DNA of 64,000 nucleotides from Bulinus truncatus (Eukaryota). The notes under the pieces are model-generated. The model ran no database searches. It saw only the letters and a program-made list of their open reading frames with translations, and was not told the DNA's origin. The stretch spans positions 5,463,061-5,527,060 of the forward strand of contig JAGDYQ010000001.1 in assembly GCA_021962125.1 (NCBI GenBank), read 5' to 3'. Numbering within the stretch: position 1 is the stretch's first letter; each line of letters begins with the position of its first letter. Of this stretch, positions 19,956 through 56,715 are shown one piece after another. The translations under genes and the position numbers were made by a program.

Positions 19956-20090
19956 AAAACATCAACCAAAGCATATGTTGAAATGACACGCAAGCAGAAC
20001 TTTGGATCAGGGTTCCAGCTGCTTATTGGCCTTGCTGAAATCCACGTTCCTAGAATGTGGGTAGAAAGGCTTCCCGATTCACAGGAGCAG
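19956..20090 (+). CDS. PARP4: PARP4-like exon 17 (..GFQLLIGLAEIHVPRMWVERLPDSQEQ).
   Basis: Acceptor CACTTCAG; donor GTAAAT; matches human GFSLHIGLSAAYLPRMWVEKHPEKESE. Confidence 0.9.
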
Positions 20091-20214
20091 GTAAATTAAA
20101 AAGTTCTTTTTGAATAAAGAACCTCAGATATAAATATTATCCAAATACCTTTTGAAAGGAAAACATTTCTTTCTTTTTAGTTAAACCCACTTTGTTTATC
20201 ATTTACTTATTCAG

Positions 20215-20401
20215 GCTTGTATGTTAACATTTTTCCCCGAATTCGAAGCTGCTGAATCAAGAGAAGGGGAGATTATTTTGCTGTTAGACAATTCAAACTC
20301 AATGAGTGGTAGTTCACTGACTGAGGCAAAGAAAGTGGCATTGCTTATCATGAAATTAATCCCAGAAAACTGGCGCTTTAATGTCATGAAGTATGGCTCA
20401 G
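20215..20401 (+). CDS. PARP4: PARP4-like exon 18, start of vWA domain (ACMLTFFPE...EIILLLDNSNSMSGSSLTEAKKVALLIMKLIP...).
   Basis: Acceptor TTATTCAG; donor GTTAGG; matches human ACMLVFQPD..VIICLDCSSSMEGVTFLQAKQIALHAL, including the MIDAS-like DxSxS motif. Confidence 0.9.
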
Positions 20402-20608
20402 GTTAGGAACTAACTTTATCTAATAAATTTTTAATTTCTAGAGGTTGTAAAAAATTGTTTCCTTAATCCCAGCTTATTTTTAAATTAACTTAACTTTTGT
20501 TTTTGAGTGGATAAAGAAAAGGAAGCTTGTAGCATGATATCTGTGGTGTAAATAGGGATTCTCATTATTTTTTTTTAATGCGCGCGTAAAATACTTTTTC
20601 TATTTTAG

Positions 20609-20682
20609 ACTATGAGGAACTGTTTCCTGCTCCGGTGGTCAGTAGTGAAGACAACTTAAAAACGGTTGTCTCATTTATACAG
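20609..20682 (+). CDS. PARP4: PARP4-like exon 19, vWA (DYEELFPAPVVSSEDNLKTVVSFIQ).
   Basis: Acceptor ATTTTAG; donor GTAAAA; matches human GYKELFSYPKHITS. Confidence 0.8.
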
Positions 20683-21213
20683 GTAAAAAAAAAAAAACAA
20701 CTGATGGACATTAAAGAAAAATAAAATAAAATAATTAAAACTGTTTGAACTTATTCAGTTATGCATGATTTTACACTGCCTTCATCCTATAAGATTCCCT
20801 TATATAGTTGGCTTACAGACTGATATTGTTTCATCAGCTTATTATTGATTTTGTCTTAATCAACTGAAAGCAGTTATATTTAAAATGAACTTTAATTAAT
20901 ATTTTGTACAAGGAGAATGCAGCATAAATAAAACAGAATATATGCAGTGCAAATAACGAACAACTTATGTAATAATAATAGAATATATTAAGTTCATGTT
21001 TCATTCATGAAGGTCATTAGGATCATTGATAAATTCAAAGGAGTAAAAATGAGCTTAATTAAATAATTTTTTAAAACCAAAAAGTATAACTAAAAGAATT
21101 CTTCTTATGATTACATCCAGTAAATATTCTTTAATTTTTCTCGTGTGACAATATTTATTCATAATTGGCACTATTTTTTTTTCTGGACCATTTTTTTCCT
21201 CCATTTTTTTTAG

Positions 21214-21401
21214 AACTGTTCAGCTACCAGAGGAGACACTGAGGTGATACGTCCATTGCAGTCACTTTTTTTACTTCCCTATCAGACCAGTCAGAGGAAT
21301 GTTTTCTTGGTGTCAGATGGCCACATCAACAACCATAATCTGGTCTTGCAGTCAGCTCATATGAACTCTTCACACACTAGAGTTTTCACATTTGGTGTAA
21401 G
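21214..21401 (+). CDS. PARP4: PARP4-like exon 20, vWA (..RNVFLVSDGHINNHNLVLQ..HTRVFTFGV).
   Basis: Acceptor TTTTTTTAG; donor GTAACT; matches human RNILLVSDGHLQDESLTLQ..HTRLFACGIG. Confidence 0.9.
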
Positions 21402-22111
21402 GTAACTAAATAAATGCATTTTATGTATAAAAGCGAAAACATTTCTCATATTTTTATGCATCATTTCACTGATTATCGTACCTGATGAATTATAAAAATT
21501 TAACATCATATAAATTTGACAGAATGCAAGCGTTTTTCAATTACAAAATTTTGTCAGAGGAGGCTCTACATTTGCTATAAAACTATTAAAAAGCCATGAT
21601 ATATTTAAACATGTATTATATTATGGCAGATTTTCTTAAGAATTATATCATAAGCTGTAGATGTCTTAAATATTTATATTACAACATATAAACATCAAAA
21701 ATGCTGAAAATAGTCCTCATAAAATAAAGATATCTGAAATCAAGTGACTCTTGATGCATTAATAAAAATGTAAGTTCAAAAAATTATCACCCCTTGATTT
21801 ATTACCTGTATTATTCTCCCTTTGGTTGTATGTTTAGTGTGCTTTTGGATGTGATCTGTGCTTTTGTAAGGTCAAGCATGCTTTGGTGATGGGCATGACT
21901 GGTAGAGGTATTGTGATTGGTCAAGGATTACGTGGAGAGGATAGGCCTTATTAGGAGGACACACATGGAGGTAGTTTTTTAGATGGTAGAGTCAGAGCAT
22001 AGTAGTCACACAGAAAAGTTAGTCAGAGTGTTTTTTGAAGAGTTGCACATGCTAGTTTTCATGAGGCAGTCTCGCAGGGGATGAATGAAGAAGGTTTTGT
22101 GAGTGAAAGTT

Positions 22112-23330
22112 TATTCATTGATGTTGTGTTGAGATGGTGCTTATATTGATTGATCTTGTGTTGAGAAGGTGCTGATATTAATTGATGTTGTGTTGAGATG
22201 GTGCTGATATTGATTGATGTTGTGTTGAGATGGTGCTGATATTGATTGATGTTGTGTTGAAAAGGTGCTGATATTGATTGATGTTGTGTTGAGATGGTGA
22301 GATGGTGCTGATATTCATTGATGTTGTGTTGAGAAGGTGCTTATATTAATTGATGTTGTGTTGAGATGGTGCTGATATTGATTGATGTTGTGTTGAGATG
22401 GTGCTGATATTCATTGATGTTGTGTTGAGATGGTGCTGATATTCATTGATGTTGTGTTGAGATGGTGCTGATATTCATTGATATTGTGTTGAGAAGGTGC
22501 TTATATTAATTGATGTTGTGTTGAGAAGGTGCTGATATTGATTGATGTTGTGTTGAGATGGTGCTGATATTCATTGATGTTGTGTTGAGATGGTGCTGAT
22601 ATTCATTGATGTTGTGTTGAGAAGGTGCTCATATTAATTGATGTTGTGTTGAGAAGGTGCTGATATTGATTGATGTTGTGTTGAGATGGTGCTGATATTC
22701 ATTGATGTTGTGTTGAGATGGTGCTGATATTCATTGATGTTGTGTTGAGATGGTGCTTATATTAATTGATGTTGTGTTGAGAAGGTGCTGATATTGATTG
22801 ATGTTGTGTTGAGATGGTGCTGATATTCATTGATGTTGTGTTGAAAAGGTGCTGATATTGATTGATGTTGTGTTGAGATGGTGCTGATATTCATTGATGT
22901 TGTGTTGAGAAGGTGCTTATATTAATTGATGTTGTGTTGAGATGGTGCTGATATTGATTGATGTTGTGTTGAGATGGTGCTGATATTCATTGATGTTGTG
23001 TTGAGATGGTGCTGATATTCATTGATGTTGTGTTGTGATGGTGCTGATATTCATTGATATTGTGTTGAGAAGGTGCTGATATTGATTGATGTTGTGTTGA
23101 GATGGTGCTGATATTCATTGATGTTGTGTTGAGATGGTGCTGATATTCATTGATGTTGTGTTGAGATGGTGCTTATATTAATTGATGTTGTGTTGAGAAG
23201 GTGCTGATATTGATTGATGTTGTGTTGAGATGGTGCTGATATTCATTGATGTTGTGTTGAAAAGGTGCTGATATTCATTGATGTTGTGTTGAGATGGTGC
23301 TGATATTCATTGATGTTGTGTTGAGATGGG
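22112..23330. repeat. Minisatellite, 32-bp unit (GTGCTGATATTCATTGATGTTGTGTTGAGATG), about 38 copies, in intron 20.
   Basis: Period measured between successive GAGATGG occurrences. Confidence 0.95.
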
Positions 23331-23671
23331 GATTATATCTATTATATCTTGAGGATTTTTCATTTTCATGTATTAAGTTCAGTCTTTATTCTCATAAGGA
23401 CTTAGTCGTGTCATTATTTTGGAACTCAAATGGGATACGACAACTACATTCAGAGACAATGAGTGGACCTAATGGTCCAGTGATGTACAGCAGAATTTTT
23501 TAAAATATCTGTCCAGTTGGCTTAGTGCAATATTATATAGCTAGGATAGCAGTCAGATTATACAATTCTACTGTTTAAAATATCTACGATTTACTTTTGT
23601 TGAATTTAAATACTGGTAAATAAACTACAACAAAAAAAAAAAAAAAACAATAATAGAAAACAAAAACACTT

Positions 23672-23790
23672 AACATAATGTTTGATGATTGTAACTCAAT
23701 GATGTTTGATGATTGTAACTCAATGATGTATGATGATTGTAACTCAGTGATGTTTGATGATTGTAACTCAATGTTATTTGATGATTGTAA
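23672..23790. repeat. Minisatellite, 24-bp unit x ~5 (CAATGATGTTTGATGATTGTAACT).
   Basis: Direct reading. Confidence 0.9.
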
Positions 23791-23851
23791 CTGAAATCAC
23801 TGAAATGTATAAATTTCCTGAAATGGTTACATTTTTTGTTGGTTTTCTCAG

Positions 23852-23951
23852 TGACACTTGTAATAGTTATGTTCTGAAAGCTCTGGCTCGTGTGTCTGGA
23901 GGAACTTTTGAGTTCTTTAATAACAAGGCCAAGTCCAAGTGGGAAACAAAG
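23852..23951 (+). CDS. PARP4: PARP4-like exon 21, vWA (SDTCNSYVLKALARVSGGTFEFFNNKAKSKWETK).
   Basis: Acceptor TTTTCTCAG; donor GTAAAA; matches human STANRHVLRILSQCGAGVFEYFNAKSKHSWRKQ. Confidence 0.9.
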
Positions 23952-24317
23952 GTAAAAGTTTTTATCATCTAAACAAAAAATTTCTGTAATTAACCTTATA
24001 CAGACCATCTGGGTCAGATGGAGCAGGGTTCGGATGTTTCTGTAGCCACTGCGAACTATGAAAATGTGGCTAGTAAATGCCCATGCACCTTTATTTTCTC
24101 TAACAAATGTTTGGAACCTAAAAGTTCTGGCACTCACCTGGGCCCAAACCTGGGCCACCTCGTTCCATGTGTTATATTAACAAAGTTAAAAATCTTTTTA
24201 TGTTAGTTGAGGGGAAAAGATAATAAAGTCCATGACTTTTTTTGTGTGTTAAGCCTAAGAAAATTTTTTTAAAACATGTTTCTTGAACTTAAATGAAAAA
24301 AAAAAAAAATATGTCAG

Positions 24318-24488
24318 GTGAAACATCAACTGGACAAAGCCAGTCAACCAGGGTTAACTTCTGTGTCGGTAGAGTGGTGCCAGTATGATGACCACCTACG
24401 CCCACCTGTGCAGGCCCCAAAACAGATCACTGCTATGTTCAATGGATCTCGACAGGTCATCTATGGCTTTGTGCCTAACTGTACAATG
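24318..24488 (+). CDS. PARP4: PARP4-like exon 22 (VKHQLDKASQPGLTSVSVEWCQYDDHLRPPVQAPKQITAMFNGSRQVIYGFVPNCTM).
   Basis: Acceptor ATGTCAG; donor GTGAGG; matches human CHSVSVKWQQLNPDAPEALQAPAQVPSLFRNDRLLVYGFIPHCTQ. Confidence 0.9.
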
Positions 24489-24499
24489 GTGAGGATACA

Positions 24500-24750
24500 A
24501 GTTAAACAATGTAAATATGTCGAATGAACAAGTTAGACAATGTAAATATGTTGAATGAACAAGTAAAACAATGTAAATATGTTGAATGAACAAGTTATAC
24601 AATGTAAATATGTTGAATGAACAAGTTAAACAATGTAAATATGTTGAATGAACAAGTTAAACAATGTAAATATGTTGAATGGACAAGTTAAACAATGTAA
24701 ATATGTTGAATGAACAAGTTAAACAATGTAAATATGTTGAATGAACTGCA
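24500..24750. repeat. Minisatellite, 31-bp unit x ~8 (GAATGAACAAGTTAAACAATGTAAATATGTT).
   Basis: Direct reading. Confidence 0.9.
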
Positions 24751-24800
24751 AAAAATATATTTCATCGAATGAAATAATTTTTTATTATATTTAAATTAAG

Positions 24801-24881
24801 GCAACTCTCTCAGCTAGTATCAGTGGGCAGCAGGTTTCTACAGTTGTCTCCACTTCAGAGCTCTCCATTACTGAAGGCTAT
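24801..24881 (+). CDS. PARP4: PARP4-like exon 23 (ATLSASISGQQVSTVVSTSELSITEGY).
   Basis: Acceptor AATTAAG; donor GTAAGA; matches human ATLCALIQEKEFCTMVSTTELQKTTGTM. Confidence 0.8.
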
Positions 24882-25024
24882 GTAAGATGTTTACTTTATT
24901 ACACACGTTTTTAAAAATTTATTTTAAAATCTAAAAAGAACCAAGTGTATGATGTTACATAAGAAAATTAATTTCCTTGAGCCACAATAAATACTTTTAA
25001 TTTCCTCTGCTAACCTGGGTTTAG

Positions 25025-25105
25025 CTTGTCCATCGTTTGACAGCAAGAGCTGTGATAAGAGACTGGGAAGATGGAGTCTTATCTTCAGACAGAACAGGCC
25101 ATGAG
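25025..25105 (+). CDS. PARP4: PARP4-like exon 24 (LVHRLTARAVIRDWEDGVLSSDRTGHE).
   Basis: Acceptor GGGTTTAG; donor GTTCGT; matches human IHKLAARALIRDYEDGILHENETSHE. Confidence 0.9.
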
Positions 25106-25386
25106 GTTCGTGCATCAACATTATTACATGTTGTTATATGGATTATTACTTTAATGTTGGAGAAAAGCTTACTGCAATCCTTTTTACTTTAAAATATTTT
25201 TTTTTGTTTTGTATCTTTAATATCTTTAGATACTGTATACAAGCACAATAATTGCTACGTTTATTCACTATTATATCACAAGCAAAAGCTTCTTTTTTCA
25301 CTTCAGTATTTTTTATATTTTTTATAGGCTTGTGATAATGTTTACACTTATGCTGGTTTTATGTACTGTAATTTTTTTTTTTACAG

Positions 25387-25488
25387 ATGGCAAAGATGGA
25401 TTTAAAAAATTACATTATAGAGTTGAGTAAACAGTATTCTATAGTCACTCAGTTCACCAGCTTCATTGCAGTAGAAAAACGAGAAGAG
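25387..25488 (+). CDS. PARP4: PARP4-like exon 25 (MAKMDLKNYIIELSKQYSIVTQFTSFIAVEKREE), ending at a GC donor (GCAAGT).
   Basis: Acceptor TTTTTTTTTACAG; matches human MKKQTLKSLIIKLSKENSLITQFTSFVAVEKRDE; only a GC-AG intron keeps the frame and the human alignment into the next exon. Confidence 0.85.
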
Positions 25489-25611
25489 GCAAGTTGCTGA
25501 AATCATTTCCAAATATAGAAATATGTCTGGCTAAGATAATGACCTTTATGGTCATTTGCAAAAGGGTTTACAAAAATAAATGTAAAATCTCTATACACAA
25601 GGACCATAGTG

Positions 25612-26455
25612 GTATTTAAACACCTGTAACATAGCATACCAAGGTCATGCATGGCAAACACCTGTTAAATGTAACATAGCATACCAAGGTCATGCATGGC
25701 AAACACCTGTTAAATGTAACATAGCATACCAAGGTCATGCATGGCAAACACCTGTTAAATGTAACATAGCATACAAAGGTCATGCGTGGCAAACACCGGT
25801 TAAATGTAACAGCATACAAAGGTCATGCGTGGCAAACACCGGTTAAATGTAACATAGCATACAAAGGTCATGCATGGCAAACACCTGTTAAATGTAACAT
25901 AGCATACCAAGGTCATGCATGGCAAACACCTGTTAAATGTAACATAGCATACCAAGGTCATGCATGGCAAACACCTGTTAAATGTAACATAGCATACAAA
26001 GGTCATGCATGGCTAACATCTGTTAAATTAACATAGCATACAAAGGTCATGCATGGCAAACACCGGTTAAATGTAACATAGCATACAAAGGTCATGCATG
26101 GCAAACACTGGTTAAATGTAACATAGCATACAAAGGTCATGCATGGCAAACACTGGTTAAATGTAACATAGTATACAAAGGTCATGCATGGCAAACACCT
26201 TTAAATGTAACATAGCATACCAAGGTCGTGCGTGGCAAACACCTGTTAAATGTAACATAGCATACAAAGGTCATGTGTGGCAAACATCTGTTAAATTAAC
26301 ATAGCATACAAAGATCATGCGTGGCCAACACCTGTTAAATATAACATAGCATACAAAAGTCATGCATGGCTAACATCTGTTAAATTAACATAGCATACAA
26401 AGGTCATGCATGGCAAACACTTGTTAAATGTAGCATAGCATACAAAGGTCATGCA
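25612..26455. repeat. Minisatellite, 45-bp unit x ~19 (TAAATGTAACATAGCATACCAAGGTCATGCATGGCAAACACCTGT), in intron 25.
   Basis: Direct reading; multiple-of-3 period produces spurious ORFs on both strands. Confidence 0.95.
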
Positions 26456-26679
26456 TGGAAAACATATGCCCTGCCTGCTTTATTTTCCCTCAGCTATTAT
26501 TAGGTCTTATTAAGAGCAGGATGTAGGATCGCAAAAAAAATAATTCCTTGCATTCACTGAGATTTGTACTCCTTGCTGACATTACCACCCTGCACCTCCC
26601 CACAGTCATTATTAAAGATGTTCTAAATAACTGGAAATGATAGTGGCATTTATTATTTTACTTAGTTTATTACTTTTTA

Positions 26680-28240
26680 ACTTTGAGACGACCTTTTTTA
26701 ACTTTCCTTTTTTAACTTTGAGACAACCTTTTTTAATTTTAGAGACAACCTTTTTTAACTTTGAGACAACCTTTTTTAACTTTCCTTTTTTAACTTTGAT
26801 ACAACCTTTTTTTAACTTTAGAGACAACCTTTTTTAACTTTCCTTTTTTAACTTTGAGACAACCTTTTTTAACTTTCCTTTTTTAACTTTGATACAACCT
26901 TTTTTAACTTTGATACAACCTTTTTTAACTTTAGAGACAACCTTTTTTAACTTTAGAGACAACCTTTTTTAACTTTAGAGACAACCTTTTTTAACTTTAG
27001 AGACAACCTTTTTTAACTTTCCTTTTTTAACTTTGAGACAACCTTTTTTAACTTTCCTTTTTTAACTTTGATACAACCTTTTTTAACTTTGATACAACCT
27101 TTTTTAACTTTAGAGACAACCTTTTTTAACTTTAGAGACAACCTTTTTTAACTTTAGAGACAACCTTTTTTAACTTTAGAGACAACCTTTTTTAACTTTC
27201 CTTTTTTAACTTTAATACAACCTTTTTTAACTTTAGAGACAACCTTTTTTAACTTTCCTTTTTTAACTTTAGAGACAACCTTTTTTAACTTTCCTTTTTT
27301 AACTTTGATACAACCTTTTTTAACTTTAGATACAACCTTTTTTAACTTTAGAGACATTTTTTAACTTTAGAGACAACCCTTTTTAACTTTAGAGACAACC
27401 TTTTTTAACTTTGATACAACCTTTTTTAACTTTAGAGACAACCTTTTTTAACTTTAGAGACAACCTTTTTTAACTTTAGAGACAACCTTTTTTAACTTTA
27501 GAGACAACCTTTTTTAACTTTAGAGACAACCTTTTTTAACTTTAGAGACAACCTTTTTTAACTTTCCTTTTTTAACTTTAGAGACAACCTTTTTTAACTT
27601 TAGAGACAACCTTTTTTAACTTTAGAGACAACCTTTTTTAACTTTAGAGACAACCTTTTTTAACTTTAGAGACAATATTTTTTAATTTTAGAGACAACCT
27701 TTTTTAACTTTAGAGACAACCTTTTTTAACTTTAGAGACAACCTTTTTTAACTTTAGAGACAACCTTTTTTAACTTTGATACAACCTTTTTTAACTTTAG
27801 ATACAACCTTTTTTAACTTTAGATACAACCTTTTTTAACTTTAGAGACAACCTTTTTTAACTTTCCTTTTTTAACTTTAGAGACAACCTTTTTTAACTTT
27901 AGAGACAACCTTTTTTAACTTTAGAGACAACCTTTTTTAACTTTAGAGACAACCTTTTTTAACTTTAGAGACAACCTTTTTTAACTTTGATACAACCTTT
28001 TTTAACTTTAGATACAACCTTTTTTAACTTTAGATACAACCTTTTTTAACTTTAGAGACAACCTTTTTTAACTTTAGAGACAACCTTTTTTAACTTTAGA
28101 GACAACCTTTTTTAACTTTCCTTTTTTAACTTTAGAGACAACCTTTTTTAACTTTAGAGACAACCTTTTTTAACTTTAGAGACAACCTTTTTTAACTTAA
28201 GAGACAACCTTTTTTAACTTTAGAGAGACAACCTTTTTTT
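26680..28240. repeat. Minisatellite, 22-bp unit x ~70 (TTTAGAGACAACCTTTTTTAAC plus GATACAACC and TTCCTTTTTT variants), in intron 25.
   Basis: Direct reading. Confidence 0.95.
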
Positions 28241-28730
28241 TTTTACAAAGGATATGAAGTGTATGTGGCTAAAAAAATTCACATTTCAATGGATCTTATG
28301 TCAAATATAATTCCTTATTACTATTTTTCTACAATACAGTTACATAATGACTTTTCTCTGGGGAAAAATAATTATTTATTCAATGTGTAAATCCCAAAAT
28401 ATAAATGTCTTTTACTGGTGTAAGGAACAAGTCCTCAGACTGAATACATGCTGATGTCCAAGAAATATTTACATATATAAAACATTTTTGTAAAAGTTTT
28501 CCACCAAGAAATTTTATTATTTCAGTATTTTTATATCTTTACAATATTGCTTGATTTTGACAAGATATGACTTAAATTATTCTATCACTGTTATTTGTCG
28601 TTGGGACAAGAAACGAATGCACGACAGGTTCAAATGAGCACACTCACAAAGAATGTTAATTATTATACATCATGAATTTCATTTTATTTTAATCATCCAT
28701 GTACTTTTATTTACCCTTTTTAATAAACAG

Positions 28731-28829
28731 AATGAAAAAGAAAATCTCTCCAATGGTCCAACAATAAAAGACTTATTGAATCAAGAGAATGTGGATATAT
28801 TGCCTTATATAAGCTGGACTCAAGGCTTG
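28731..28829 (+). CDS. PARP4: PARP4-like exon 26 (NEKENLSNGPTIKDLLNQENVDILPYISWTQGL).
   Basis: Acceptor AATAAACAG; donor GTAAGT; matches human NESPFPDIPKVSELIAKEDVDFLPYMSWQGE. Confidence 0.9.
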
Positions 28830-28929: not shown

Positions 28930-29088
28930 TCAGGAGATGATGTTCCCATAGAATTACTTCTAGAGCAGCTTGAAGAAGAAATTAAAAATGGAGTTTTGTC
29001 AAATAAATTAGCCGACAGTCTAGAAGATATTGAGAAGTTTGTAACAATGAAGGAGCAATCTTCCCCTTGTAACAAAGATATTTTACAG
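28930..29088 (+). CDS. PARP4: PARP4-like exon 27, lineage-specific acidic region (SGDDVPIELLLEQLEEEIKNGVLSNKLADSLEDIEKFVTMKEQSSPCNKDILQ).
   Basis: Acceptor CTGTACCAG; donor GTATTT; 159 nt, phase 0; no clear human counterpart. Confidence 0.6.
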
Positions 29089-29247: not shown

Positions 29248-29329
29248 AATGCTAGACTTCTGGTTCAAGCTTATAAGTTAAATTCAGATATTGAAAAGGC
29301 AGCAGAGTTAGCAGTGGAAGTTTTCAATG
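29248..29329 (+). CDS. PARP4: PARP4-like exon 28 (NARLLVQAYKLNSDIEKAAELAVEVFN).
   Basis: Acceptor TCTTACAG; donor GTAAAG; phase 0 in, 1 out. Confidence 0.55.
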
Positions 29330-29575: not shown

Positions 29576-29722
29576 AAAGTGTAGATAAAATAGTGGCTGT
29601 ATGTGGTGATAGGGATGTTTACCCTGAAGTTATCACTCATCTATGCAAATTTAAAAGGGATATCTTTGAGATTCCTGAAGTTGAAAAGAAACTCAGAGCA
29701 GTTACATCACTTCCTGTGTACG
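29576..29722 (+). CDS. PARP4: PARP4-like exon 29 (ESVDKIVAVCGDRDVYPEVITHLCKFKRDIFEIPEVEKKLRAVTSLPVY).
   Basis: Acceptor ATTTTTAG; donor GTATGTAAG; phase 1 in and out. Confidence 0.55.
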
Positions 29723-29763
29723 GTATGTAAGAAAAAAAAGACAGTTTTGATTGGGCATGCAAT

Positions 29764-31098
29764 TCTGTTAAATTAACAGAACGCTGTGGCTTCGAATACG
29801 ACCGGCCGTGCTACGTATTTTTTTTTTTCGAGACACGACCTACAAACTTTGATGATGTCAGTAAACAGAATGAACTCTTATGATTTAAAGTTATTTTCTT
29901 TTCGCGGGAACGAGTAATTTTGTCTACTTATACATTAAAATTGTATCTGCTTGTGTGTCCTCCTGGCACAATGGTTAAACCATTTGGTTTGTGACTCATT
30001 TTTATGCTGACTATATCCAGGTTCGATTCCTCTCAGAAACATAACTTTTTTTATTGTGTTTTTTTTCAGAATGTATCCTTTTAATTGTTTTAATGAAAAA
30101 TAACTAATTAGATCTCTTTGACTTTTTTAAAAAATTGAAGTAATGTTTCCTTAAGGATGTTGTAAGAAAAAGAAACAACAACTAATTGGTTTTTTTTTAA
30201 CTATTTCATAACTTAAAAAAAAAAATATTTTGAAAATATGTATCAAAGCTGAACACAGAGGCGTAACAAGGAAGGGTGGGGGGGGGGGGGTCCAAAATCG
30301 AAAGTCCCGCCGGGCTCCAGCTTGAGGGGAGCCCCCAAAATTATTTTTACATTAAATATTAAGTACATAATCTCATGTCATGGTATCGAATGTCAAAATG
30401 CAAGGCCCCCAAATCCTAGGTTCGGCAATGGCTTTACAGGGTACAGCTAGTCCTAAATATTACCTAACTTTTCCTTACCATCATTTTGCGTCACACTTTA
30501 AAAAATTCAGAGTAGCCTACATATTTCAAATTTACTAAATAATAATAAGATTAAGAAAAGAAAATAGAGGGGATGGGGAAGCATTTATATCCGAGAATTG
30601 AACCAAATACTGACGGAGACGAATTAACGAGTGTTAGCTTTCTGGGGGGGGGGGAGGGGGAGGGGTACGATAGATACTAATTTAGCGCATAATTTTTTGT
30701 TTTATTCGTCCGACTTTATTAGGCTTGGGCAGACCCGAAAAAAAAGTAATAAAGAATAACTGCCGTGCATGTGCACATCTTTACTCTTAGTCTTAGACAT
30801 ATATCCTGACAACTAAAATATATAATTCAAAGCTGTATTTATTTAAAAAAAAATATTATAAAAATATCTCCGATTATTAACAGCAAATGACTTTATTAGG
30901 CTTGGACAGACCCGAAAAAAAATTAATGCCAAATATAAAAATATCTCCGATTATTAACAGCAAATGACGTCATCAACGTCTGCAGTAAATAAGAGTTCTC
31001 ATTCATTCTGTTTACTGACGTTATCAAAGTTTGCTGGTCGTGTCTCGAAAAAAAAAATACGTAGCACGGCCGGTCGTATTCAAAGCCACTGTTAACAG
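29764..31098. mobile_element. Second foldback / long-TIR non-autonomous DNA element (about 1.33 kb) in the intron after PARP4-like exon 29.
   Basis: Inverted terminal arms of about 130 bp (29764-29895 vs 30965-31098); internal duplicated segment (GACTTTATTAGGCTTGG.CAGACCCGAAAAAAA x2); internal Pol III B-box-like GGTTCGATTCC; TSD not resolved. Confidence 0.6.
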
Positions 31099-31564
31099 AA
31101 ATATTATAAATAAAGGACGGTTTGACATTGTGTTAGAGGCCATGACTGTGCACCTGAATATCTTGGTGACTTCTGGAATTTTACTTGTGTCTCAACATCA
31201 TCTCATTGTATTAGTTGTGTAAAGTGAATAGTAGATATATATAAATAGTTACATTGTCATCACAAATTGTAATCACGGAGCCTTGATGGAAGCCTTAAAG
31301 TTGTTCATAGAAGATAGTTCTTGGTAAATAATGTAGCTTTGTCATAAAAAATAGTTCATGATAAATAATAAAGCTTTGTCACAGAAGATAGTTCATGTTG
31401 AATAATCTAGCTTTGTCCATCATTCAGTTATGTAAAAATTTATTTGCTTAATTTTTTGGTATTAGCTTAACTACCTCTAAATGAGTTCTGTAAAAATGAG
31501 TTATTCTAAAAACTTGATTGAGATGTGTGCAAATGTGTAATTTTGATATTCAAAATATGAACAG

Positions 31565-31818
31565 GTGACAGATTTGTTAAAGTGAGGACCTTAACAGGCA
31601 AGTCAGTGATCTGCCCTATATCAGATGACATGACAGTTTTTGACCTGAAACATATTATCCATTTTCTCATGGAAAAGGATGCTGTACCTTTTGACCATCA
31701 ACGATTGATTCATGCCGGCTTGCAATTAAATGATGATGATATTCTTAAAGACAAAAATGTCACTTATGGGGACACCATTCATCTTGTACATAGACTTCGA
31801 GGAGGTGGAGGCAAGTAA
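31565..31818 (+). CDS. Ubiquitin/NEDD8-like domain exon (G)DRFVKVRTLTGKSVICPISDDMTVFDLKHIIHFLMEKDAVPFDHQRLIHAGLQLNDDDILKDKNVTYGDTIHLVHRLRGGGGK*. Candidate alternative terminal exon of the PARP4-like gene.
   Basis: Acceptor ACAG lies directly after an in-frame TGA at 31558-31560; phase 1 in matches the donor of exon 29; clear ubiquitin fold signature (FVK.LTGK, QQRLI.AG.QL.D, IHLVHRLRGG); ends with a diglycine-containing tail like the NEDD8 precursor. Confidence 0.45.
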
Positions 31819-32112
31819 TAATAGTTGGGCGTAAACATCTATGATTTTGCATCATTATTTGTTGCACAGTGCCCATTTTCGATTTTTTTTTTACTGCTGT
31901 GCATCATCAAATACTGGACTGAAACTCTGATGATGTCAGACATTATAGTATTTTCACATCTTAAAAATGCACGCTGGCCAAGTTGGACTAGTGATATCAC
32001 TGCCCATTACAAACTAATGTTTATTCTCACCTTATAATATCAAGCCAAAAAAAACAAAAAAATTAATTGGTAATTATTATAAACTAGTAGTTCAACCTGT
32101 TCTATGCTATTT

Positions 32113-34034: not shown

Positions 34035-34955
34035 GTCTTTGGTAAAAGTACATCTTGGGTAATAACCACACAGTCTGATGGCATGTCTTAGGTAATAGCC
34101 ACACAATCTGATAGCATGTCTTGGGTAATAGCCTCACAGTCTGATAGCATGTCTTGGGTAATAGCCACACAGTCTGATAGCATGTCTTGGGTAATAGCCT
34201 CACAGTCTGATAGCATGTCTTGGGTAATAGCCACACAGTCTGATAGCATGTCTTGGGTAATAGCCACACAGTCTGATAGCATGTCTTGGGTAATAGCCAC
34301 ACAGTCTGATAGCATATCTTGGGTAATAGCCACACAGTCTGATAGCATGTCTTGGGTAATAACCACACAGTCTGATAGCATGTCTTGGGTAATAGCCACA
34401 CAGTCTGATAGCATGTCTTGGGTAATAGCCTCACAGTCTGATAGCATGTCTTGGGTAATAGCCACACAATCTGATAGCATGTCTTGGGTAATAGCCTCAC
34501 AGTCTGATAGCATGTCTTGGGTAATAGCCACACAGTCTGATAGCATGTCTTGGGTAATAGCCACACAGTCTGATAGCATGTCTTGGGTAATAGCCTCACA
34601 GTCTGATAGCATGTCTTGGGTAATAGCCACACAGTCTGATAGCATGTCTTGGGTAATAGCCACACAGTCTGATAGCATGTCTTGGGTAATAACCACACAG
34701 TCTGATAGCATGTCTTGGGTAATAGCCACACAGTCTGATAGCATGTCTTGGGTAAAAGCCTCACAGTCTGATAGCATGTCTTGGGTAATAGCCTCACAGT
34801 CTGATAGCATGTCTTGGGTAATAGCCACACAGTCTGATAGCATGTCTTGGGTAATAGCCACACAGTCTGATAGCATGTCTTGGGTAATAGCCACACAGTC
34901 TGATAGCATGTCTTGGGTAATAGCCACACAGTCTGATAGCATATCTTGGATAATA
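34035..34955. repeat. Minisatellite, 33-bp unit x ~28 (GTCTTGGGTAATAGCCACACAGTCTGATAGCAT).
   Basis: Direct reading; generates 280-300 aa ORFs in three frames on both strands. Confidence 0.95.
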
Positions 34956-35016
34956 AATATATGAGCTCTGCTTTATCTCATGGCTCTTTACTTTCAATTT
35001 TTTTGTGTGACTCAAG

Positions 35017-35085
35017 ATGTGTGGATCGAAGATTCAATGAGAAGAAGTGGCAAAGTAGCTGAGGTAGCTTGGGATACCTGTCTAG
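35017..35085 (+). CDS. PARP4: Candidate PARP4-like mini-exon A ((D)VWIEDSMRRSGKVAEVAWDTCL).
   Basis: Acceptor CTCAAG; donor GTAAAT; phase 1 in and out, compatible with exon 29 and exon B; no human homology visible. Confidence 0.35.
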
Positions 35086-35561
35086 GTAAATAATTTTATC
35101 CTATTAGTTTAGAGTTTAATTTCCTGAAGCTGGCAATGCTGAAAACAGCATATGAGATATTTTATTTTGTTAAACATTCATATCTTTAGAGATTTGTTGT
35201 TTCTAGTTGTGTATTTAATAAAATGAGCTTGTTGTTATTGTCCTGATTATGGGTGGAAGGAGGGGGAGGGGTGTGCAGCAAAACTCTTAACAGTGACCCA
35301 CACTTTTGGGGTCCCATCAGGTACAGTAAGATGCTATAATGTAAATGAAATCTTTTGGTTTTTGTTGTTTTTTTTTTGTTTACAGAAGATACTGACTAAA
35401 TTATTCTATTAGAAAATTTTTTTAAATCAAGATATCAAACAAAATGTTTTTAGTGAAGATCATGAGACAACAATGTATCCATGGCCACGCAATATTGCCT
35501 CCATACTATTGTGCAAGTGTGTGCAAAACAGCCTCTATGCGGTGGCTAAATCTTCCCTTTA

Positions 35562-35565
<4 letters not shown>

Positions 35566-35659
<94 letters not shown>

Positions 35660-37106: not shown

Positions 37107-37199
37107 TAGCGTCTGAACCCACTTATGGATGTGAGGACTTAATCTATGGAGATTTTGAAAATCTTGATTGCTTATCAGAAGAATCTTATAAGGAGAAAG
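37107..37199 (+). CDS. PARP4: Candidate PARP4-like exon B, acidic ((V)ASEPTYGCEDLIYGDFENLDCLSEESYKEK).
   Basis: Acceptor TTTTCAG; donor GTGCCT; phase 1 in and out; acidic, like the human SQPEVSEDFEEDG region. Confidence 0.4.
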
Positions 37200-37578: not shown

Positions 37579-37659
37579 TTAAAGAAATATCAAGTCTCAA
37601 GATGAAGAAGAAGAAAACACAGATGGGTTTCAGAGTATCTGAAGTAGCTTTGGATAAAG
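37579..37659 (+). CDS. PARP4: Candidate PARP4-like exon C ((V)KEISSLKMKKKKTQMGFRVSEVALDK).
   Basis: Acceptor AATCTAG; donor GTTTCA; phase 1 in and out; basic stretch resembling human SKRKHRKIPFSKRK; shares the motif RVSEVALDK / KVAEVAWD with exon A. Confidence 0.4.
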
Positions 37660-38223: not shown

Positions 38224-40072
38224 GTAACTTTGATTTTTTAAAAATAACCTTGTTGTTGTTTGTTGTACAGCTATAGGAAAATTGAAAACCATATAATATA
38301 TTCTGTGTAAATGAATGGTTGTAAGCAGAATGCAATCTACACTGTCCTCTAGTATGTCATAGTTGCAGTGACCAGATTTTTCTGAGGTCAACTGGAAGGG
38401 GGTGTGAGGGTTGGATCTAATGAAGCCATATTCCTTCTTGGTTGATGTAAAACAGAAGGGTAAAAAAAACTGATTAAATGGAACATACCCTTTCCTAATT
38501 GAGAATGATATCATTCATTAGAAGGCTAACATTGCCACAGTTCAAAGTATCAGAAGTGTTTACATTGGCGCAGCTCAAAGTATCAGGAGTGTTTACATTG
38601 GCACAATTTAAAGTATCAGAAGTGTTTACATTGGCACTGTTCTAAAGTATCATTGTAAGTTTTGTGTTTACATTGACACAGTTCAGAGTATTAGAAGTGC
38701 TTGAGAGTAATTTATTATTCTTTTTGGAATCTGAAGGGGAATGTTAAATTTTCAATATTCATAAAAAAAAACTACAAATAACAGTTTAGTTTTTTTAATA
38801 ATAAAAATTTTGATGCAACAGGCTTAGATAGATTTGAAATATCAATTAGTGAATTGCTGTATTTAATTGAAAGTAAAATGGTAACAATATTATGTCATTA
38901 AAGATTTAAAACATCAAAGTGAAAAAAATAAATTCGTCAACTAGCTCTTAAATATTCCATAAAAATTGTTATTTTTTTCTCACCATTTACATTATGAGCA
39001 CATTAAAAATATGAATGATTAGCCTTCATGCATCATAATGAACAAAATGGAATTAGAATGAGTGTAGAAAAATGTACTCAGTTCATCAGAAAAAAGGACT
39101 GGATGGGATATTTCCTTACCATTCTGAAATATTTCATGGACCTTCCCATCATGCTGTCACTAACAACTTCTGAACTAATCTGTCTTTTCCCTTTAAGATT
39201 AAGTTTTAAATACTTTCTTTATTGTTACTCAAGGTTTCGCATTGATGAGAGCCACAAAAACGATAAGAGATGATACAAGAGAAGAGCCTTTGAAAATAGG
39301 TATGGTATTTAATCTAAGTTGTGTAGAGTTTAATGTTTCATTACTGAATTAATGATTACATGATCTCTAAACCTCAACCATTACTTTTATGATTAGTTTT
39401 TTTAGATTTTTCATTCAATTCATTTCAACTGCTAAATCAATAGCAGGAGTTCAAGGACAATACAGCCAACTGATCTCTCATTTCCTCTCTATGCTAAGGG
39501 CAGTGATAACAAGTCTGGTATAGTTTCATTTGTACATTTGTTTTTTGAAGCCAGCTTTTGTGTATGTGACCTCTCTGATAAGTGCCATTATGTCTAAGTA
39601 TAGAGTGCTGTGACACACCAATTCAGAGATACCAGATATGGTTTTTAAGGACCTGACACCAGTTTTGTCAGTTTTGTGTTTACATTGGTGCAGTTCAGAG
39701 TATCAGAGTGTTTACATTGGTGCAGTTCAGAGTATCAGAAATGCTTGAGAGTAATTTATTATTCTTTTTGGAATCTGAACTGGAATGTTAAATTTTCAAT
39801 ATTCATAAAAAACAAACTACGAACAACAGTTTAGTTTTTTTAATATTAAAAATTTTGATGCAACAGGCTTAGATAGATTGGAAGCATCAATTAGTGAATT
39901 GCTGTATTTAATTGAAAGTAAAATGGTAACAGTATTATGTCATTAAAGATTTAAAACATCAAAGTGAAAAAAACAAATTCGTTTACTAGCTCTTAAATAT
40001 TCCATAAAAATTGTTATTTTTTTTCTCACCATTTACATTATGAGCACATTAAAAATATGAATGATTAGCCTC

Positions 40073-48085: not shown

Positions 48086-48626
48086 GTAGGGGAAAAAAAA
48101 TTTTTGCACTTTTACTAAAAGAATACAAATTTATTTACATTTTTAGATACTATAACATACCAAAAATAACTTAGAATTAAATGTATTGCAAGAAAAAAAA
48201 TTATTTAGATCACTTAAATTGTATTTTCAGAATGTTTACTCATTCAAAAACTTCAATAATTTAAAAACTTAAAGTTATTTTTTTTTTTCATATTTTTTTG
48301 ACATTTCGCTTCACTGCGGAAAGAGAATCCCACAAACCACCTGTCAGATTTTGATAAAACTTCTAATTTATATTTAGAAGAGGTGTATTTATAGAATGAC
48401 AGAAGCTTTTAAAGAAATTTTAAGTCCATTTTTAAAATTTTTCAATTAGCATTTTTTTCTTATTTTCACCTTACTAAATTAAAAAAAACAATACATGTAT
48501 TTATTATATTATCAAAAAAGTACTTGGACATTCCATAAAAAAATATTTTTAAACATACTATATTATTACTATGATATTAAAATGTCTTAAACTTTAATAA
48601 CAATATTTTCATTTTGACCCGGGTAG

Positions 48627-50085
48627 GCCCTTAAGTTGGGAGAAAGAAGAGCTCTCAGAAACCACTGGAAGTTTGGAGCCTTCAAAATATAATGATGCAT
48701 GGATGGAAACAAAGAAAGCTGTTGGAGTTAAACATTCACAATCTTACCAACTCTATTGCTTAGATGATGATGATGATGATATGGAAGAAACATTATTTGA
48801 GGAGATGCCTAAAACTAATCTTACAGATTCTTTTCTGCCACCGTTGCTAAAATCACAGCCTCAGACTTTGCACACAGAAAAACAAACAAAAGGGATATTT
48901 AGAGCTCGAACATTGGGTGCTGCATCACGACCACAACAAACACGTTCTGCAAAAGATGTGCCAGATAAAGAAATGCAGATAGAGTTGACTGGTTCACAGG
49001 GCTTTTCTCAACCTTTATCTTCAACTCGATCTTTGTACAGTGAACATCAGATATCTCTAGCTAGTAACTCACTGCAATCAGCACAGACACGTTCAAAAAG
49101 ACGAAATTCTTCCTCTGTAAGATTTATTAAAGCTCCAACAAGGCTATTTGATTCTGCATCAACAAAAGACCTTTCAGATCGCTCTGCATCTCCTCCATCA
49201 GCACCTTTAATTAAGGGGTCTGGTCCTGCTCCACCACCCATATCCAACACTGACAGTGTGTCATGTGACTCTAGACCAACACCAAAATCAGATACTTATT
49301 ATTCATCAAGTTATTTTACACCTTCAACTCAGCTGTTGGGTTCAGTGCCTCCTCCTGGTTGTCCATCTTGGACACTGTCACTATCTGGGCAGTTTGGTTC
49401 TGCAATTCAGACGCAACCTACAACTATGCTGTCTGGTTTTATACCTCTGCCACCACTTCCATCGAGGCATTTTGATTCTGCAACTCTTCTACTACCTTCA
49501 TCTGTGTCATATGGCTATGTACCTCCACCAATTCCATCAAGGCGTCCTGTCTGTGCATTTGTTCCACCGCCTTCATCTGGGCTGTTAGGCTCTGTACCAC
49601 CACCACCTTCATCTGTGCTGTTTGGCTCTGTACCTCCACCACCACCTCCATCTAGGCTGTTTGGCTCTGTACCTCCACCACCACCACCTTCATCTGGGCT
49701 GTTTGGCTCTGTACCACCACCACCACCTCCATCTAGGCTGTTTGGCTCTGCACCTCCACCACCACCACCTTCATCTGAGCTGTTTGGCTCTGCACCTCAG
49801 CCACTATCTTCATCTATGAACTTTGGTTTTCTATCAACGGAAGATACTGTGAGTTATTGTTGCTCAACATCACAGCTAAGTGAAGACTTTTGTGAATCTG
49901 AAGAGGATAGTAATTTTTACAATGAAATAAACATGAGGGTTATGTCTCGAGATGGTCCTGAAGTTAAATCCACAAGTCAACCTCTGTTTGACTTTGGTAT
50001 TGGTTCTCAAATTACCAATGTCAGATGTAGATCTACAAAACTGAGCTTGAACAACTTGGAAAAATTATTGGACAATCAGAAAATG
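48627..50085 (+). CDS. PARP4: PARP4-like large exon F: Ser/Pro-rich low-complexity region with 39-bp coding repeats (LFGSVPPPPPPS x ~6), followed by an acidic Cys-containing segment.
   Basis: 486-codon ORF; acceptor CCGGGTAG (phase 2 in); donor GTAATT (phase 0 out); corresponds to the human PARP4 Pro/Ser-rich C-terminal region (..PPQNPPSAPYCGIVFSGSSLSS..). Confidence 0.8.
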
Positions 50086-50762
50086 GTAATTATTAATACA
50101 TAATTCATAAAACATAATTATTAATAAATGTACAGTCCAGTTACCTAACCCTATCTTAGCCATCAGATAAAATAACTGAGAGATAAATCAATATAACAAA
50201 AGAAATCTTTATTTAACAAAAAAAACAGCTAATTCTTATAGATTTGATGCTGCTAAAAACCAAAATTTTCTATGATAGTTTAAATTTCTAATCCTTTATG
50301 GTCCTAACAATTAAATCAAAATAAATCATGTCAGTGCATTTACAAAAATTTAGGGAAACTTTGTAAAAAAAAAAGTAAAATAAAAACAATGAAATAAAGT
50401 ATTTTTTCACCTTATATAGGCAAGTGTAGCACTATTCATCCTTATACATTTTACCTTACCCATTGGTGACTAGGTTTCCCAGTTTACTTTTGGGACGCGT
50501 CCCAGTTTAGCATCACACATCTTAGTATCCTGGAATGCTCAGGGATAATCATAGAATATTATGTAAATATCCCAGCCCATTCCATATTCTGAGGAATTGT
50601 GTACATTTTCCTACACCCATTCTGATTCAAAATGATACGTTTTGCCCATTACAAATTTTTTTTAATGTTGAATTTCATAATTCGATTGTGCTTAAAAAAA
50701 TAGTTTTATTTTTAACTCGAAGTTTCAACACTTTAATGATTTAGTACTGTAACCAGTTTTAC

Positions 50763-55299: not shown

Positions 55300-55399
55300 G
55301 ATGGCAGCTGGGAATTCGGAAAAGATCTTGATGAACTGATTGGGATAAACAGTGAAAAGTGTCTGAACATTCTTGAAAATAGTGGACTTAAGTCACTTG
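55300..55399 (+). CDS. PARP4: PARP4-like exon G (DGSWEFGKDLDELIGINSEKCLNILENSGLKSL).
   Basis: Acceptor TTATTTAG; donor GTAAGG; matches human EDGFWKLTPELGLILNLNTNGLHSFLKQKGIQSL. Confidence 0.85.
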
Positions 55400-56416
55400 G
55401 TAAGGATTTTTAAATATACAAATACATGTTTCTTTTACACAATGTTTGCACAATCCCTTTAAATGCAGTGTCTACGGAAAAGGATGAAGTCTACTCCACC
55501 AACCCGCAATGACCCTCATGTTCCTTAGGGAGTCTGTTTGCACAGACATATTCAGTAATAAATCCCAACTCATATTTAGTCCCTTCCCTGGACACTGTTT
55601 GGAATTAAAATCATTAGAATTTCCTCTTCATGGGGCCTATTTGCTTATTTTGTAAGGCTTTTTAGTATGATTATGACCTCCCCCCCAGTATAATCATTAC
55701 CTGGCAGACTTCTGCAAACACTCCCTGTTCACAAAGGTGCTATGTACATGTTGCCCATGAATCCATTAATGTTTGCCTGCTGCTACTTGATGATAAAATT
55801 AAAGACATACCTTTAGTCAGAGGTTAAAGCTCACAAAGACTTTGACTTTGATAATTTTAATAATTTAACAAAAAGATAATGTTATAAAGTTGAAATTGCT
55901 AATAAACCTTATTTCAATTAATATATTATGTGAATTAAATTTTTTTATTATATAACAAAAAAAGATGGGTTACCCTGCCCCACAATTGTTTCAAAACACA
56001 CTATAGGGATCATAAGCTCTTTATGTATTTTATCACAATATAATCACAATATATATACTAAACCATAATTAGGGGAATGATAATTTGTCTTCCTTTTTAA
56101 TCCAATAGTTTATGCCCAACATTTTCTTAAACTTCCTTTCAATATTAAATCCACGTGGTGCTCTGTCTAAGTGGAATTCCCTGTGACATATTAAATAATT
56201 AAGAAAACTTTATTTGATCTTATACAAAATTAAGTAATTATTATAAAGATTAATTCTGCAAAGTTGGCCTTGTTTCTACAGTTATCTGAATCTGTGTATT
56301 TTAGTTTTATTTTAAAATAACAGAAATAGTAGTATTTTATTACTGAAGGAAAAAAAAAGTTTTATTAGGGTGCCGCTTAAAATTCAACTTTTTTTGTTAT
56401 CCGATTCTTTCAACAG

Positions 56417-56715
56417 GGCAAACAACTGAAAATACCATTAAAAGTTATCTGGCCACTCTGCTTGTGGTGTTTTCAATTTTTGAGTTGGTCTGGGAAGAAG
56501 TAGATTTCCAGTTTCCTTTATCAGTGAGCTCCCAGAAATTTGAAAATACTCTGCAGGGCTTGAGAAATCTTGGTCTGAATGAAGACGAGTTGGCAAGGAC
56601 GATCAGCGCATTGAGCTTGGCTTTGAACAAATGCCAGACTGTAGATAAAATGTATCCTGTGACTTGTAGCACTCTGGAGCTAGGGACCAGCTGGAATCAT
56701 GTTGTGATCTCCTGA
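56417..56715 (+). CDS. PARP4: PARP4-like terminal exon H, MVP-interacting C-terminus (..YLATLLVVFSIFELVW...YPVTCSTLELGTSWNHVVIS*).
   Basis: Acceptor TTTCAACAG; matches human LLDLIATMLVLQFIRTRLE...YPSICPRLELGNDWDSATKQL; stop TGA at 56713-56715. Confidence 0.9.

Follow-up and report, generated by a model that had tools for sequence, protein, structure and literature searches.

A ubiquitin-like domain exon conserved in gastropod PARP4 genes and its likely alternative use in Bulinus truncatus

Introduction

The published layout of PARP4, the vault PARP, is BRCT-(WGR-HD)-ART-VIT-vWA-linker-MVP-ID, with no ubiquitin-like domain (UBL) described (PMC2964712, PMC10450202, PMC12280208), and its linker has already been suggested as a site of cleavage or modification (PMC10450202). 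Perina et al. 2014 reported PARP4-like proteins with an appended 14-3-3, as well as ubiquitin-related domains in two Acanthamoeba clade-5 PARPs; a UBL in an animal PARP4 is not described there (PMC4245714). The present analysis concerns a stretch of 64,000 nucleotides from the gastropod Bulinus truncatus (contig JAGDYQ010000001.1, positions 5,463,061 to 5,527,060), hereafter the window, in which an exon at 31565–31818 encodes a UBL. This exon is read here, with a probability of about 0.85, as the exon for the UBL domain in the PARP4 of a heterobranch gastropod. The core of this reading, a conserved PARP4 UBL exon that would be spliced from the exon directly upstream (exon W), is held with high confidence.

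The PARP4 gene of the window and its UBL exon

The window has a guanine-cytosine (GC) content of 33% and a CpG observed/expected ratio of 0.36. Its top protein matches are all PARP4, and the gene lies on the + strand, with gastropod rather than vertebrate PARP4s as the closest proteins. Gastropod PARP4 proteins align by tblastn colinearly over 10181–28829, the BRCT, PARP catalytic, VIT and vWA domains following one another on a single strand. The best match, Biomphalaria glabrata A0A2C9KRG3 and A0A2C9KRH5, is colinear with every exon of the window at an identity of about 50–95% (40% in exon W). The initial annotation had taken vertebrate PARP4 as its frame of comparison; the closest proteins and the colinearity with Biomphalaria place the gene among gastropod PARP4s instead. 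The UBL exon and the four exons leading to it are listed below, with exon boundaries marked by a slash.

28731..28829, + strand: PARP4 exon X, phase 0-0, encoding NEKENLSNGPTIKDLLNQENVDILPYISWTQGL; splice sites read
28930..29088, + strand: PARP4 exon Y, helical linker region, phase 0-0; sites ccag/TCA and CAG/gtattt; colinear with Biomphalaria P0143 residues 1265-1317
29248..29329, + strand: PARP4 exon Z, phase 0-1, splice sites read; its NARLLVQAYKLNSDIEKAAELAVEVFN matches Biomphalaria NAKLLVKAYTLQSETSKAVDLAVEIFN
29576..29722, + strand: PARP4 exon W ("exon 29" of the initial annotation), phase 1-1; donor ACG/GTATGT at 29722/29723
31565..31818, + strand: UBL exon, acceptor aacag/G in phase 1; 83 codons of ubiquitin fold ending in HRLRGGGGK; TAA at 31816-31818

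Exon X, which matches nearly all PARP4 proteins compared (69% identity to Biomphalaria), is the final segment common to all PARP4 proteins before the linker. When the 94 residues preceding the linker were used as the query, only short metagenomic fragments were returned. Exon W aligns to Biomphalaria residues 1346-1394 with 40% identity (expectation value, E, 9e-9), and the translation runs uninterrupted through the joined exons X, Y, Z, W and UBL.

Entered in phase 1 at 31565 and read from 31567, the UBL exon encodes (G)DRFVKVRTLTGKSVICPISDDMTVFDLKHIIHFLMEKDAVPFDHQRLIHAGLQLNDDDILKDKNVTYGDTIHLVHRLRGGGGK, followed by TAA TAA TAG. The junction with exon W yields ..SLPVY-G-DRFVKVRTLTGK.. (..SLPVY-GDR-FVKVRTLTGK..). 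An in-frame TGA occupies 31558-31560, just 5' of the acceptor at 31564/31565, the first beta-strand of the exon has no ATG ahead of it in frame, and an Arg stands at the position of Met1. The Pfam ubiquitin family PF00240 matches the exon over profile positions 1-72 of 72 with 46 bits (E 4.4e-12), where the curated cut-off is 25.4 bits, and ubiquitin chains of the PDB match at about E 1e-12. The AlphaFold2 model (mean predicted local distance difference test, pLDDT, 85) adopts a beta-grasp with strands at residues 5-10, 15-19, 47-51, 54-56 and 72-77 and a helix at 26-36. In a Foldseek search, the top matches of this model are ubiquitin, with template-modelling (TM) scores of 0.8-0.9 and root-mean-square deviations of 1.5-2 Å. 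The Leu8, Ile44, His68, Val70 patch, the RLRGG tail and a ubiquitin-type Arg72 are all kept. In addition, the GC content of the exon is 39% against 31-35% in its flanks, and the chance of an open frame of 85 codons at the composition of the flanking introns is about 7e-4. On the model and these matches, the exon is predicted to encode a well-preserved ubiquitin fold.

These results bear out a large part of the initial annotation. Frame, Pfam, PDB and AlphaFold2/Foldseek agree on its ubiquitin-superfold exon at 31565-31818; the upstream in-frame TGA and the CAG/G acceptor are both read where it had placed them; its view that the exon has no start of its own holds, as no in-frame ATG precedes the first strand; and the entry phase of 1 is supplied by the donor at 29722/29723, itself of phase 1, with an open joined frame.

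The splice-site heuristic also returned another in-frame junction, from 29726/29727 (TAT/gtaaga) to 31571/31572 (gtgacag/A) in phase 2, whose sites sit 4 nt and 7 nt from the main donor and acceptor and which would give ..PVYG-I-FVKV... It was rejected as the main junction because the spacing in Biomphalaria (three residues from PVH to F) and the acceptor of Plakobranchus favour 29722 to 31565.

Conservation in other gastropod PARP4 genes

In Biomphalaria, the models A0A2C9KRG3 and A0A2C9KRH5 have the junction ..KIPEVEHRLKPISSLPVH-DGR-FLIVKNLTGKSVSCPASDSMTVLDLKHII..KLRGG.. and the same order X-Y-Z-W-UBL as the window. The UBL of Biomphalaria matches 31570-31800 with 53% identity (E 1e-19). Both models (1924 aa and 2001 aa) have the same BRCT, PARP, VIT and vWA domains, helical linker, UBL and Pro-rich tail. 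They differ from the window in that their UBL is internal (..KLRGG-LAEDQ..) and has about 450-530 residues after it, whereas the window has a stop after RLRGGGGK; the window also has a three-residue insertion (HFL) after helix 1. In Plakobranchus ocellatus, the acceptor of the UBL exon is tgatcag/GT against tgaacag/GT in the window; both are of phase 1, lie 7 codons from TLTG and have the upstream TGA in common. The Plakobranchus exon is 246 nt long, of phase 1-1, with the donor ACAG/gtaaaa and without a stop. The claim that the exon belongs to PARP4 and continues in frame from "exon 29" thus agrees with the exon order and junction of Biomphalaria, and the check that had been proposed for it, whether related PARP4 loci carry the same exon, gave an identical acceptor position and phase in Plakobranchus and the same junction in the Biomphalaria models.

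In Littorina saxatilis, two independent annotations (XP_070191086.1 and KAK7108576.1) both contain the UBL after ..DILDYIGW, and in Batillaria attramentaria (KAG5699378.1) and Plakobranchus (GFO43316.1) the UBL likewise follows a ..DILxYxGW segment. Exons Y, Z and W of the window have no counterpart in Littorina and Batillaria. At the Littorina locus L001, the UBL exon spans 35348-35588 and its donor AGGG/gtgagt splits the codon of Gly75 in phase 1, with all later exons of phase 1-1; its acceptor is unlike that of the window, being of phase 0 and three codons farther upstream. The strong donors of Littorina, Batillaria and Plakobranchus, with a di-glycine donor of phase 1 and no stop in the UBL exon, set these genes apart from the window. 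In the Candidula locus, no UBL was found up to its end, 7.4 kb past exon X. Taken together, the UBL of the window is orthologous to the gastropod PARP4 UBL that follows the ITIH-like (VIT-vWA) body and precedes the disordered linker to MVP-ID/MINT.

Two annotation points were seen in these loci. The Plakobranchus annotation (locus L002, 10001-39623 and 47411-49623) has two models, divided at the UBL exon, for what is probably one PARP4 gene: the first ends in ..RLRGGGEIT without a stop at the good donor ACAG/gtaaaa, and the second contains the MVP-ID. In Littorina, at about 38975-38985 of L001, XP_070191086.1 ends in ..GMMGG and a stop by reading through the donor ATGGGAG/gttagt, at which KAK7108576.1 splices and gains 63 residues.

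Distribution of PARP4 proteins with a UBL

A profile built from the UBL of the window and the Littorina and Batillaria proteins was run on 1.84 billion representative proteins, and the matches were then rescanned locally. PARP-VIT-vWA-ubiquitin proteins, confirmed by Pfam, were found in the mussel Sinanodonta woodiana, in transcripts of Euglena gracilis, Diplonema japonicum and D. ambulator, and on several eukaryotic contigs. With Biomphalaria, Plakobranchus, Littorina and Batillaria, the gene models with a PARP4-UBL belong to four other gastropods and one bivalve. PARP4 lacks the UBL in Potamilus, Saccostrea, Mytilus, Magallana, Nematostella, Lytechinus, Sycon and vertebrates, 91 long PARP4 proteins having been scanned without a UBL, and PF00240 occurs in none of the approximately 100 vertebrate PARP4 proteins among the matches listed. 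The pair Sinanodonta (with UBL) and Potamilus (without) was considered as a test of exon skipping and set aside as uninformative, the two being 45% identical there and not evidently the same gene.

Helix 1 of the UBLs embedded in PARP4 has a common TVxDLK signature. Of the 15 PARP4 UBLs aligned, that of the window among them, 13 retain RLRGG or KLRGG, the exceptions being RLRSA in P0241 and RLRAE in Batillaria, where the GG is lost (RLRAEEE); two further PARP4 UBLs keep RLRG and then have Ser. In most orthologs the residue after RLRGG is Pro; the heterobranchs lack it (GG-L, GG-G, and GG-GGK before a stop).

The initial annotation had presented a PARP with a UBL as a new architecture, which its presence in four other gastropods, one bivalve and the Euglena and Diplonema transcripts contradicts. 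The PARP4-UBL architecture is old and already in the databases (for example, in the Biomphalaria UniProt entries), though little noticed; it is no new gene fusion.

Origin of the exon

The intron between exon W and the UBL exon contains an inverted-repeat element.

29786..31089, strand not assigned: foldback (inverted-repeat) element in the W-UBL intron; arms 29786-29874 and 31002-31089, 93-98% complementary

The arms, 89 nt long and with about 1.1 kb between them, confirm the foldback element that had been noted upstream of the exon; it starts 64 nt past the donor of exon W and ends 476 bp upstream of the UBL exon. A recent capture of the exon by this transposon, which that proximity had suggested, has a negligible probability: the same exon occupies the same place of the gene in Biomphalaria and Plakobranchus, the domain is also found in Littorina, Batillaria and a bivalve, and the element is wholly intronic, without overlap with the exon. 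Transposon-mediated capture is refuted by this conservation, and the element is an intronic insertion.

A nested independent UBL gene, or a processed ubiquitin or NEDD8 pseudogene, within the PARP4 intron would fit the long intron-rich stretch and the tail GG-GGK, which is like that of the NEDD8 precursor (GG-GGLRQ). Such an origin is very improbable, given that the exon has no in-frame ATG, a TGA just upstream and an Arg at the position of Met1, that its acceptor is conserved with Plakobranchus together with the upstream TGA, that the bases read past the stop showed no evident poly(A) tract, and that its UBL is nearer to the PARP4-embedded UBLs than to ubiquitin or NEDD8, the nearest being the PARP4 UBL of Biomphalaria. 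A NEDD8 pseudogene with its own upstream exon, which the initial annotation had named as the outcome that would overturn its reading, is rejected on the missing Met, the conserved splice acceptor and this nearest relative. The likeness to NEDD8 itself was not borne out either. In the alignment, the window UBL is 54% identical to Biomphalaria, 46% to Littorina, 43% to ubiquitin and 40.5% to human NEDD8, and position 72, which is Ala in NEDD8 and Arg in ubiquitin, is of the ubiquitin type.

Terminal or internal use of the exon

Four further features bear on how the exon, conserved as part of PARP4, would be used in Bulinus.

31805..31810 (31804/31805), + strand: candidate donor D1, GAG/GTGGAG, phase 1; would make a symmetric 1-1 exon of 240 nt ending in ..RLRG
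31815..31820 (31814/31815), + strand: candidate donor D2, CAA/GTAATA, phase 2; aligned by eye with Plakobranchus CAG/gtaaaa, 5 nt out of register
37107..37199, + strand: candidate PARP4 exon, inferred, 93 nt, phase 1-1, (V)ASEPTYGCEDLIYGDFENLDCLSEESYKEK; sites tttttcag/ and AAAG/gtgcct
37579..37659, + strand: candidate PARP4 exon, inferred, 81 nt, phase 1-1, (V)KEISSLKMKKKKTQMGFRVSEVALDK; splice sites good, as at 37107; frame open

In the window, the stop stands three codons after the GG of the UBL, and the strong phase-1 donor of Littorina and Plakobranchus appears to be missing there. D1, one codon from the position of the Littorina donor AGGG/gtgagt, is the only in-phase donor near the di-glycine in the window, and it is weak. 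Its GTGGAG fits the donors of this gene poorly, since among the 18 listed donors a G at +3 occurs in 2 and a G at +4 in 1. D2 looks more typical than D1 because the gene's own donors are mostly of the GTAA type without G at +5, such as CAG/gtaata at 14233, which has the same hexamer as D2. Read through, the UBL exon gives ..RLRGGGGK and a stop, and splicing from D2 to 37107 gives ..RLRGGGGNSV and a stop; the frame is open when 37107 is joined either from D1 or, with the UBL skipped, from exon W. Inclusion of the exon would therefore end the protein right after the UBL unless D1 is used, because the stop follows the GG by three codons and D2, being out of phase, also leads to a stop.

As the proposed mechanism has it, inclusion of the UBL exon would produce a truncated PARP4 in which the BRCT, catalytic, VIT and vWA domains are retained, the UBL is terminal and the vault-docking domain is missing. 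The full-length, vault-docked PARP4 would arise by skipping of the UBL exon, from W to the next phase-1 exon in frame, or through D1, with the UBL internal as in the relatives. Thus, UBL inclusion probably ends the protein and skipping probably gives the full-length PARP4, and alternative use, with a truncated UBL-ended isoform beside a full-length isoform made by skipping or by D1, is the most likely reading of the frames and splice sites.

Several observations weigh against this reading. The UBL is internal in every relative examined, namely Biomphalaria, both Littorina models, Batillaria, Plakobranchus, Sinanodonta, Euglena and Diplonema, and the proteins of Biomphalaria, Sinanodonta, Euglena and Diplonema extend for hundreds of residues past it. 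D1, weak yet usable in principle, would turn the UBL exon into a normal internal exon. The first poly(A) hexamers after the stop, ATTAAA at 32663 and AATAAA at 32840, lie at least 845 nt past it, where the background is 3 per kb. Furthermore, the polypyrimidine tract of the UBL acceptor is poor, the Biomphalaria, Batillaria and Sinanodonta proteins are gene models, the exons at 37107 and 37579 were placed from splice sites and phase alone, and exons X-W without the UBL, used as the query, had no match in a collection of 5.8 billion proteins. Of the alternative terminal exon proposed by the initial annotation, the in-frame stop stands and a UBL-terminated isoform is possible; the internal position in all relatives examined speaks against it as the general arrangement.

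The main rival of alternative use is an ordinary, constitutive internal exon, in which D1 is always used, the UBL is internal in a single full-length PARP4 and the stop after GGGGK is never read. This reading, which is a serious though not a favoured possibility, agrees with the internal UBL of Biomphalaria, both Littorina models, Batillaria, Sinanodonta and the Euglena and Diplonema transcripts, with the symmetric 240-nt exon that D1 would define (246 nt in Plakobranchus) one codon from the Littorina donor, and with the open frame from D1 to 37107. It is opposed by the poor fit of GTGGAG to the GTAA-type donors of the gene, which GTAATA of D2, out of frame, resembles more. Alternatively, the exon may be decaying, its donor lost in this lineage, so that it is always skipped as a relic on its way to becoming intron. 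The lost canonical donor, the stop right after the domain, the weak acceptor tract and the frame kept on skipping would all fit; this is nonetheless unlikely in view of an 85-codon frame intact between flanks of 31-35% GC (about 7e-4), of the exon's GC of 39% above those flanks, and of the retained hydrophobic core, Ile44 patch and RLRGG with 54% identity to Biomphalaria.

The gene downstream of the UBL exon

In the window after the UBL exon, tblastx against the Plakobranchus and Littorina loci showed the UBL exon alone as conserved, and the downstream exon chain therefore cannot be fixed by this comparison. Three features were placed by protein matches.

48601..50100, + strand: Pro-rich linker with LFGSVP repeats in a large open frame; exon boundaries provisional
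55300..55401, + strand: vault-docking (MVP-ID/MINT) exon encoding DGSWEFGKDLDELIGINSEKCLNILENSGLKSLG; matches vertebrate PARP4 C-terminal domains
56518..56697, + strand: MVP-ID/MINT exon encoding ..VDKMYPVTCSTLELGTSWN; matches about 40 vertebrate PARP4 C-termini, motif D+QYPxxCSRLELGxxW

The post-UBL tail of Biomphalaria aligns to 48877-49740 (E 4e-7), the acidic motif after the Batillaria UBL matches the window at 48754-48795, and Pfam Nucleoporin_FG falls just under its cut-off on the 48601-50100 frame. The exons 55300-55401 and 56518-56697 are colinear with vertebrate PARP4 C-termini, although their single E-values are modest (3e-4 to 1e-2, in a small database). In Plakobranchus, the second model, after the UBL, contains PF26156 PARP4_MVP-ID. 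On these matches, the UBL exon is placed inside the gene, about 24 kb upstream of the vault-docking exons, and the gene extends at least 25 kb beyond it. The candidate exon at 37107 has a weak by-eye likeness to the Biomphalaria tail and no BLAST match to it. Mini-exon A (35017-35063), which the initial annotation had proposed as the competing continuation from exon W, was left uncorroborated and was not used; it is open from phase 1 and exits in phase 0, with a vague likeness to post-UBL peptides of Biomphalaria and Littorina.

A number of likenesses were seen in the linkers of these proteins. The candidate exon 37107-37199, ..GDFENLDCLSEESYKEK, resembles the last helix of 14-3-3 (compare Branchiostoma PARP4 ..AELDTLSEESYKDS..), and two PARP4 relatives have weak Pfam 14-3-3 matches directly before the UBL. 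Acidic motifs in the PARP4 tails, including proteins P0233, P0007, P0034 and P0142, resemble the C-terminal tail of the ribosomal P-stalk (..EESDDDMGFGLFD), and residues 1611-1650 of Euglena P0233 match Pfam Ribosomal_60s (E 1.3e-8); further examples are Batillaria EEESDEEMGFCLFDSDDD, Tegillarca DEDLEFGLFGDGE, Littorina KMGYDLIADD and the window at 48754-48795, YCLDDDDDDMEETLFEE. In Littorina, the PARP4 linker downstream of the UBL (L001, about 38859-38978) contains GRTNQTARMSTGGKAPARMQMA in a phase 1-1 exon of its own, a look-alike of the histone H3 N-tail; the PDB matches of GRTNQTARMSTGGKAPARMQMA are solely histone H3 residues 1-22 (E 7e-4), N replacing K4 and M replacing K9. The linker of Sinanodonta woodiana P0151, GKAAPRKHLATKAARKSAS, matches H3 residues 10-30 (E 4e-3). 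In H3, PARP1/2 with HPF1 ADP-ribosylate serine mainly at the ARKS motif. A search of the window for H3-tail-like peptides such as those in these mollusc linkers found none.

Elsewhere in the window, tandem-repeat arrays at 50740-54400, 44335-45900, 34092-34961, 25610-26300 and 60000-60600 occupy much of the introns and of the region after the Pro-rich exon, and the long repetitive open frames in the lists of open reading frames are these arrays. Upstream of PARP4, on the minus strand, 1160-1468 holds an open frame of 103 codons (..FQKLDFGETAVLDTFYNAELAVVDMSLPVQQAPLFYHIGIRQSMGMKHNIVTVFDSDPEMSMSLKVRAFN..), which may be an exon of a neighbouring gene.

Possible function and meaning

A Pro after the GG of a ubiquitin fusion makes the junction resistant to deubiquitinases. 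Because RLRGG is usually followed by Pro in the orthologs, comparison among them suggests that the PARP4 UBL would be an uncleaved interaction module in most lineages, and an integral ubiquitin-like interaction module is most likely its role. The loss of this Pro in heterobranchs leaves room for a speculative processing scenario. The hallmark of a type-1 modifier, a C-terminal Gly-Gly with a short extension, would be present on read-through as RLRGG-GGK-stop. Under such a switch, inclusion of the UBL would end translation three residues past RLRGG with loss of vault docking, and trimming of the kind seen in precursors could expose the Gly-Gly, so that the ADP-ribosyltransferase as a whole might become attached to targets; in orthologs whose UBL is internal and lacks the Pro, a deubiquitinase could free the enzyme from its vault anchor. 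This switch is a long shot.

The apparent new gene fusion has become a correctly placed, conserved exon, and the 3' half of the gene is mapped almost completely. Non-vertebrate vault-type PARPs, in gastropods, at least one bivalve, Euglena and Diplonema, often have, in the linker that joins the enzyme body to the vault-docking domain, a UBL that preserves RLRGG, and the PARP-family surveys consulted make no mention of a UBL in the PARP4 linker of animals. A conserved UBL in this linker is a testable lead that links ADP-ribosylation, ubiquitin signalling and vault association.

Comparison with known systems

Vertebrate PARP4 has the order BRCT-WGR-HD-ART-ITIH-like-linker-MVP-ID/MINT. The window gene belongs to the same family and encodes all these parts, including the MVP-ID; of the two, only the window gene has the UBL. 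The clade-5 PARPs of Acanthamoeba castellanii with ubiquitin-related domains, known here from their description only, and the PARP4-like proteins with an appended 14-3-3 are the published precedent for modules of these two kinds placed behind VIT-vWA in PARPs of the vault type (PMC4245714).

Ubiquitin and NEDD8 precursors resemble the window UBL in the beta-grasp fold, the Leu8/Ile44/His68/Val70 patch, RLRGG and, if the exon is read through, the three-residue extension before a stop. Compared with them, the window UBL is 43% and 40.5% identical, respectively, lacks Met1 and follows a PARP4 body about 1,400 residues long, and its features of conjugation are read from sequence alone. The integral UBLs of the Rad23, parkin and OASL type are likewise embedded in a larger protein, as the UBL is internal in most PARP4 orthologs, and it is presumably an interaction module there as well. 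They usually lack a preserved RLRGG, whereas the PARP4 UBLs mostly keep RLRGG or KLRGG.

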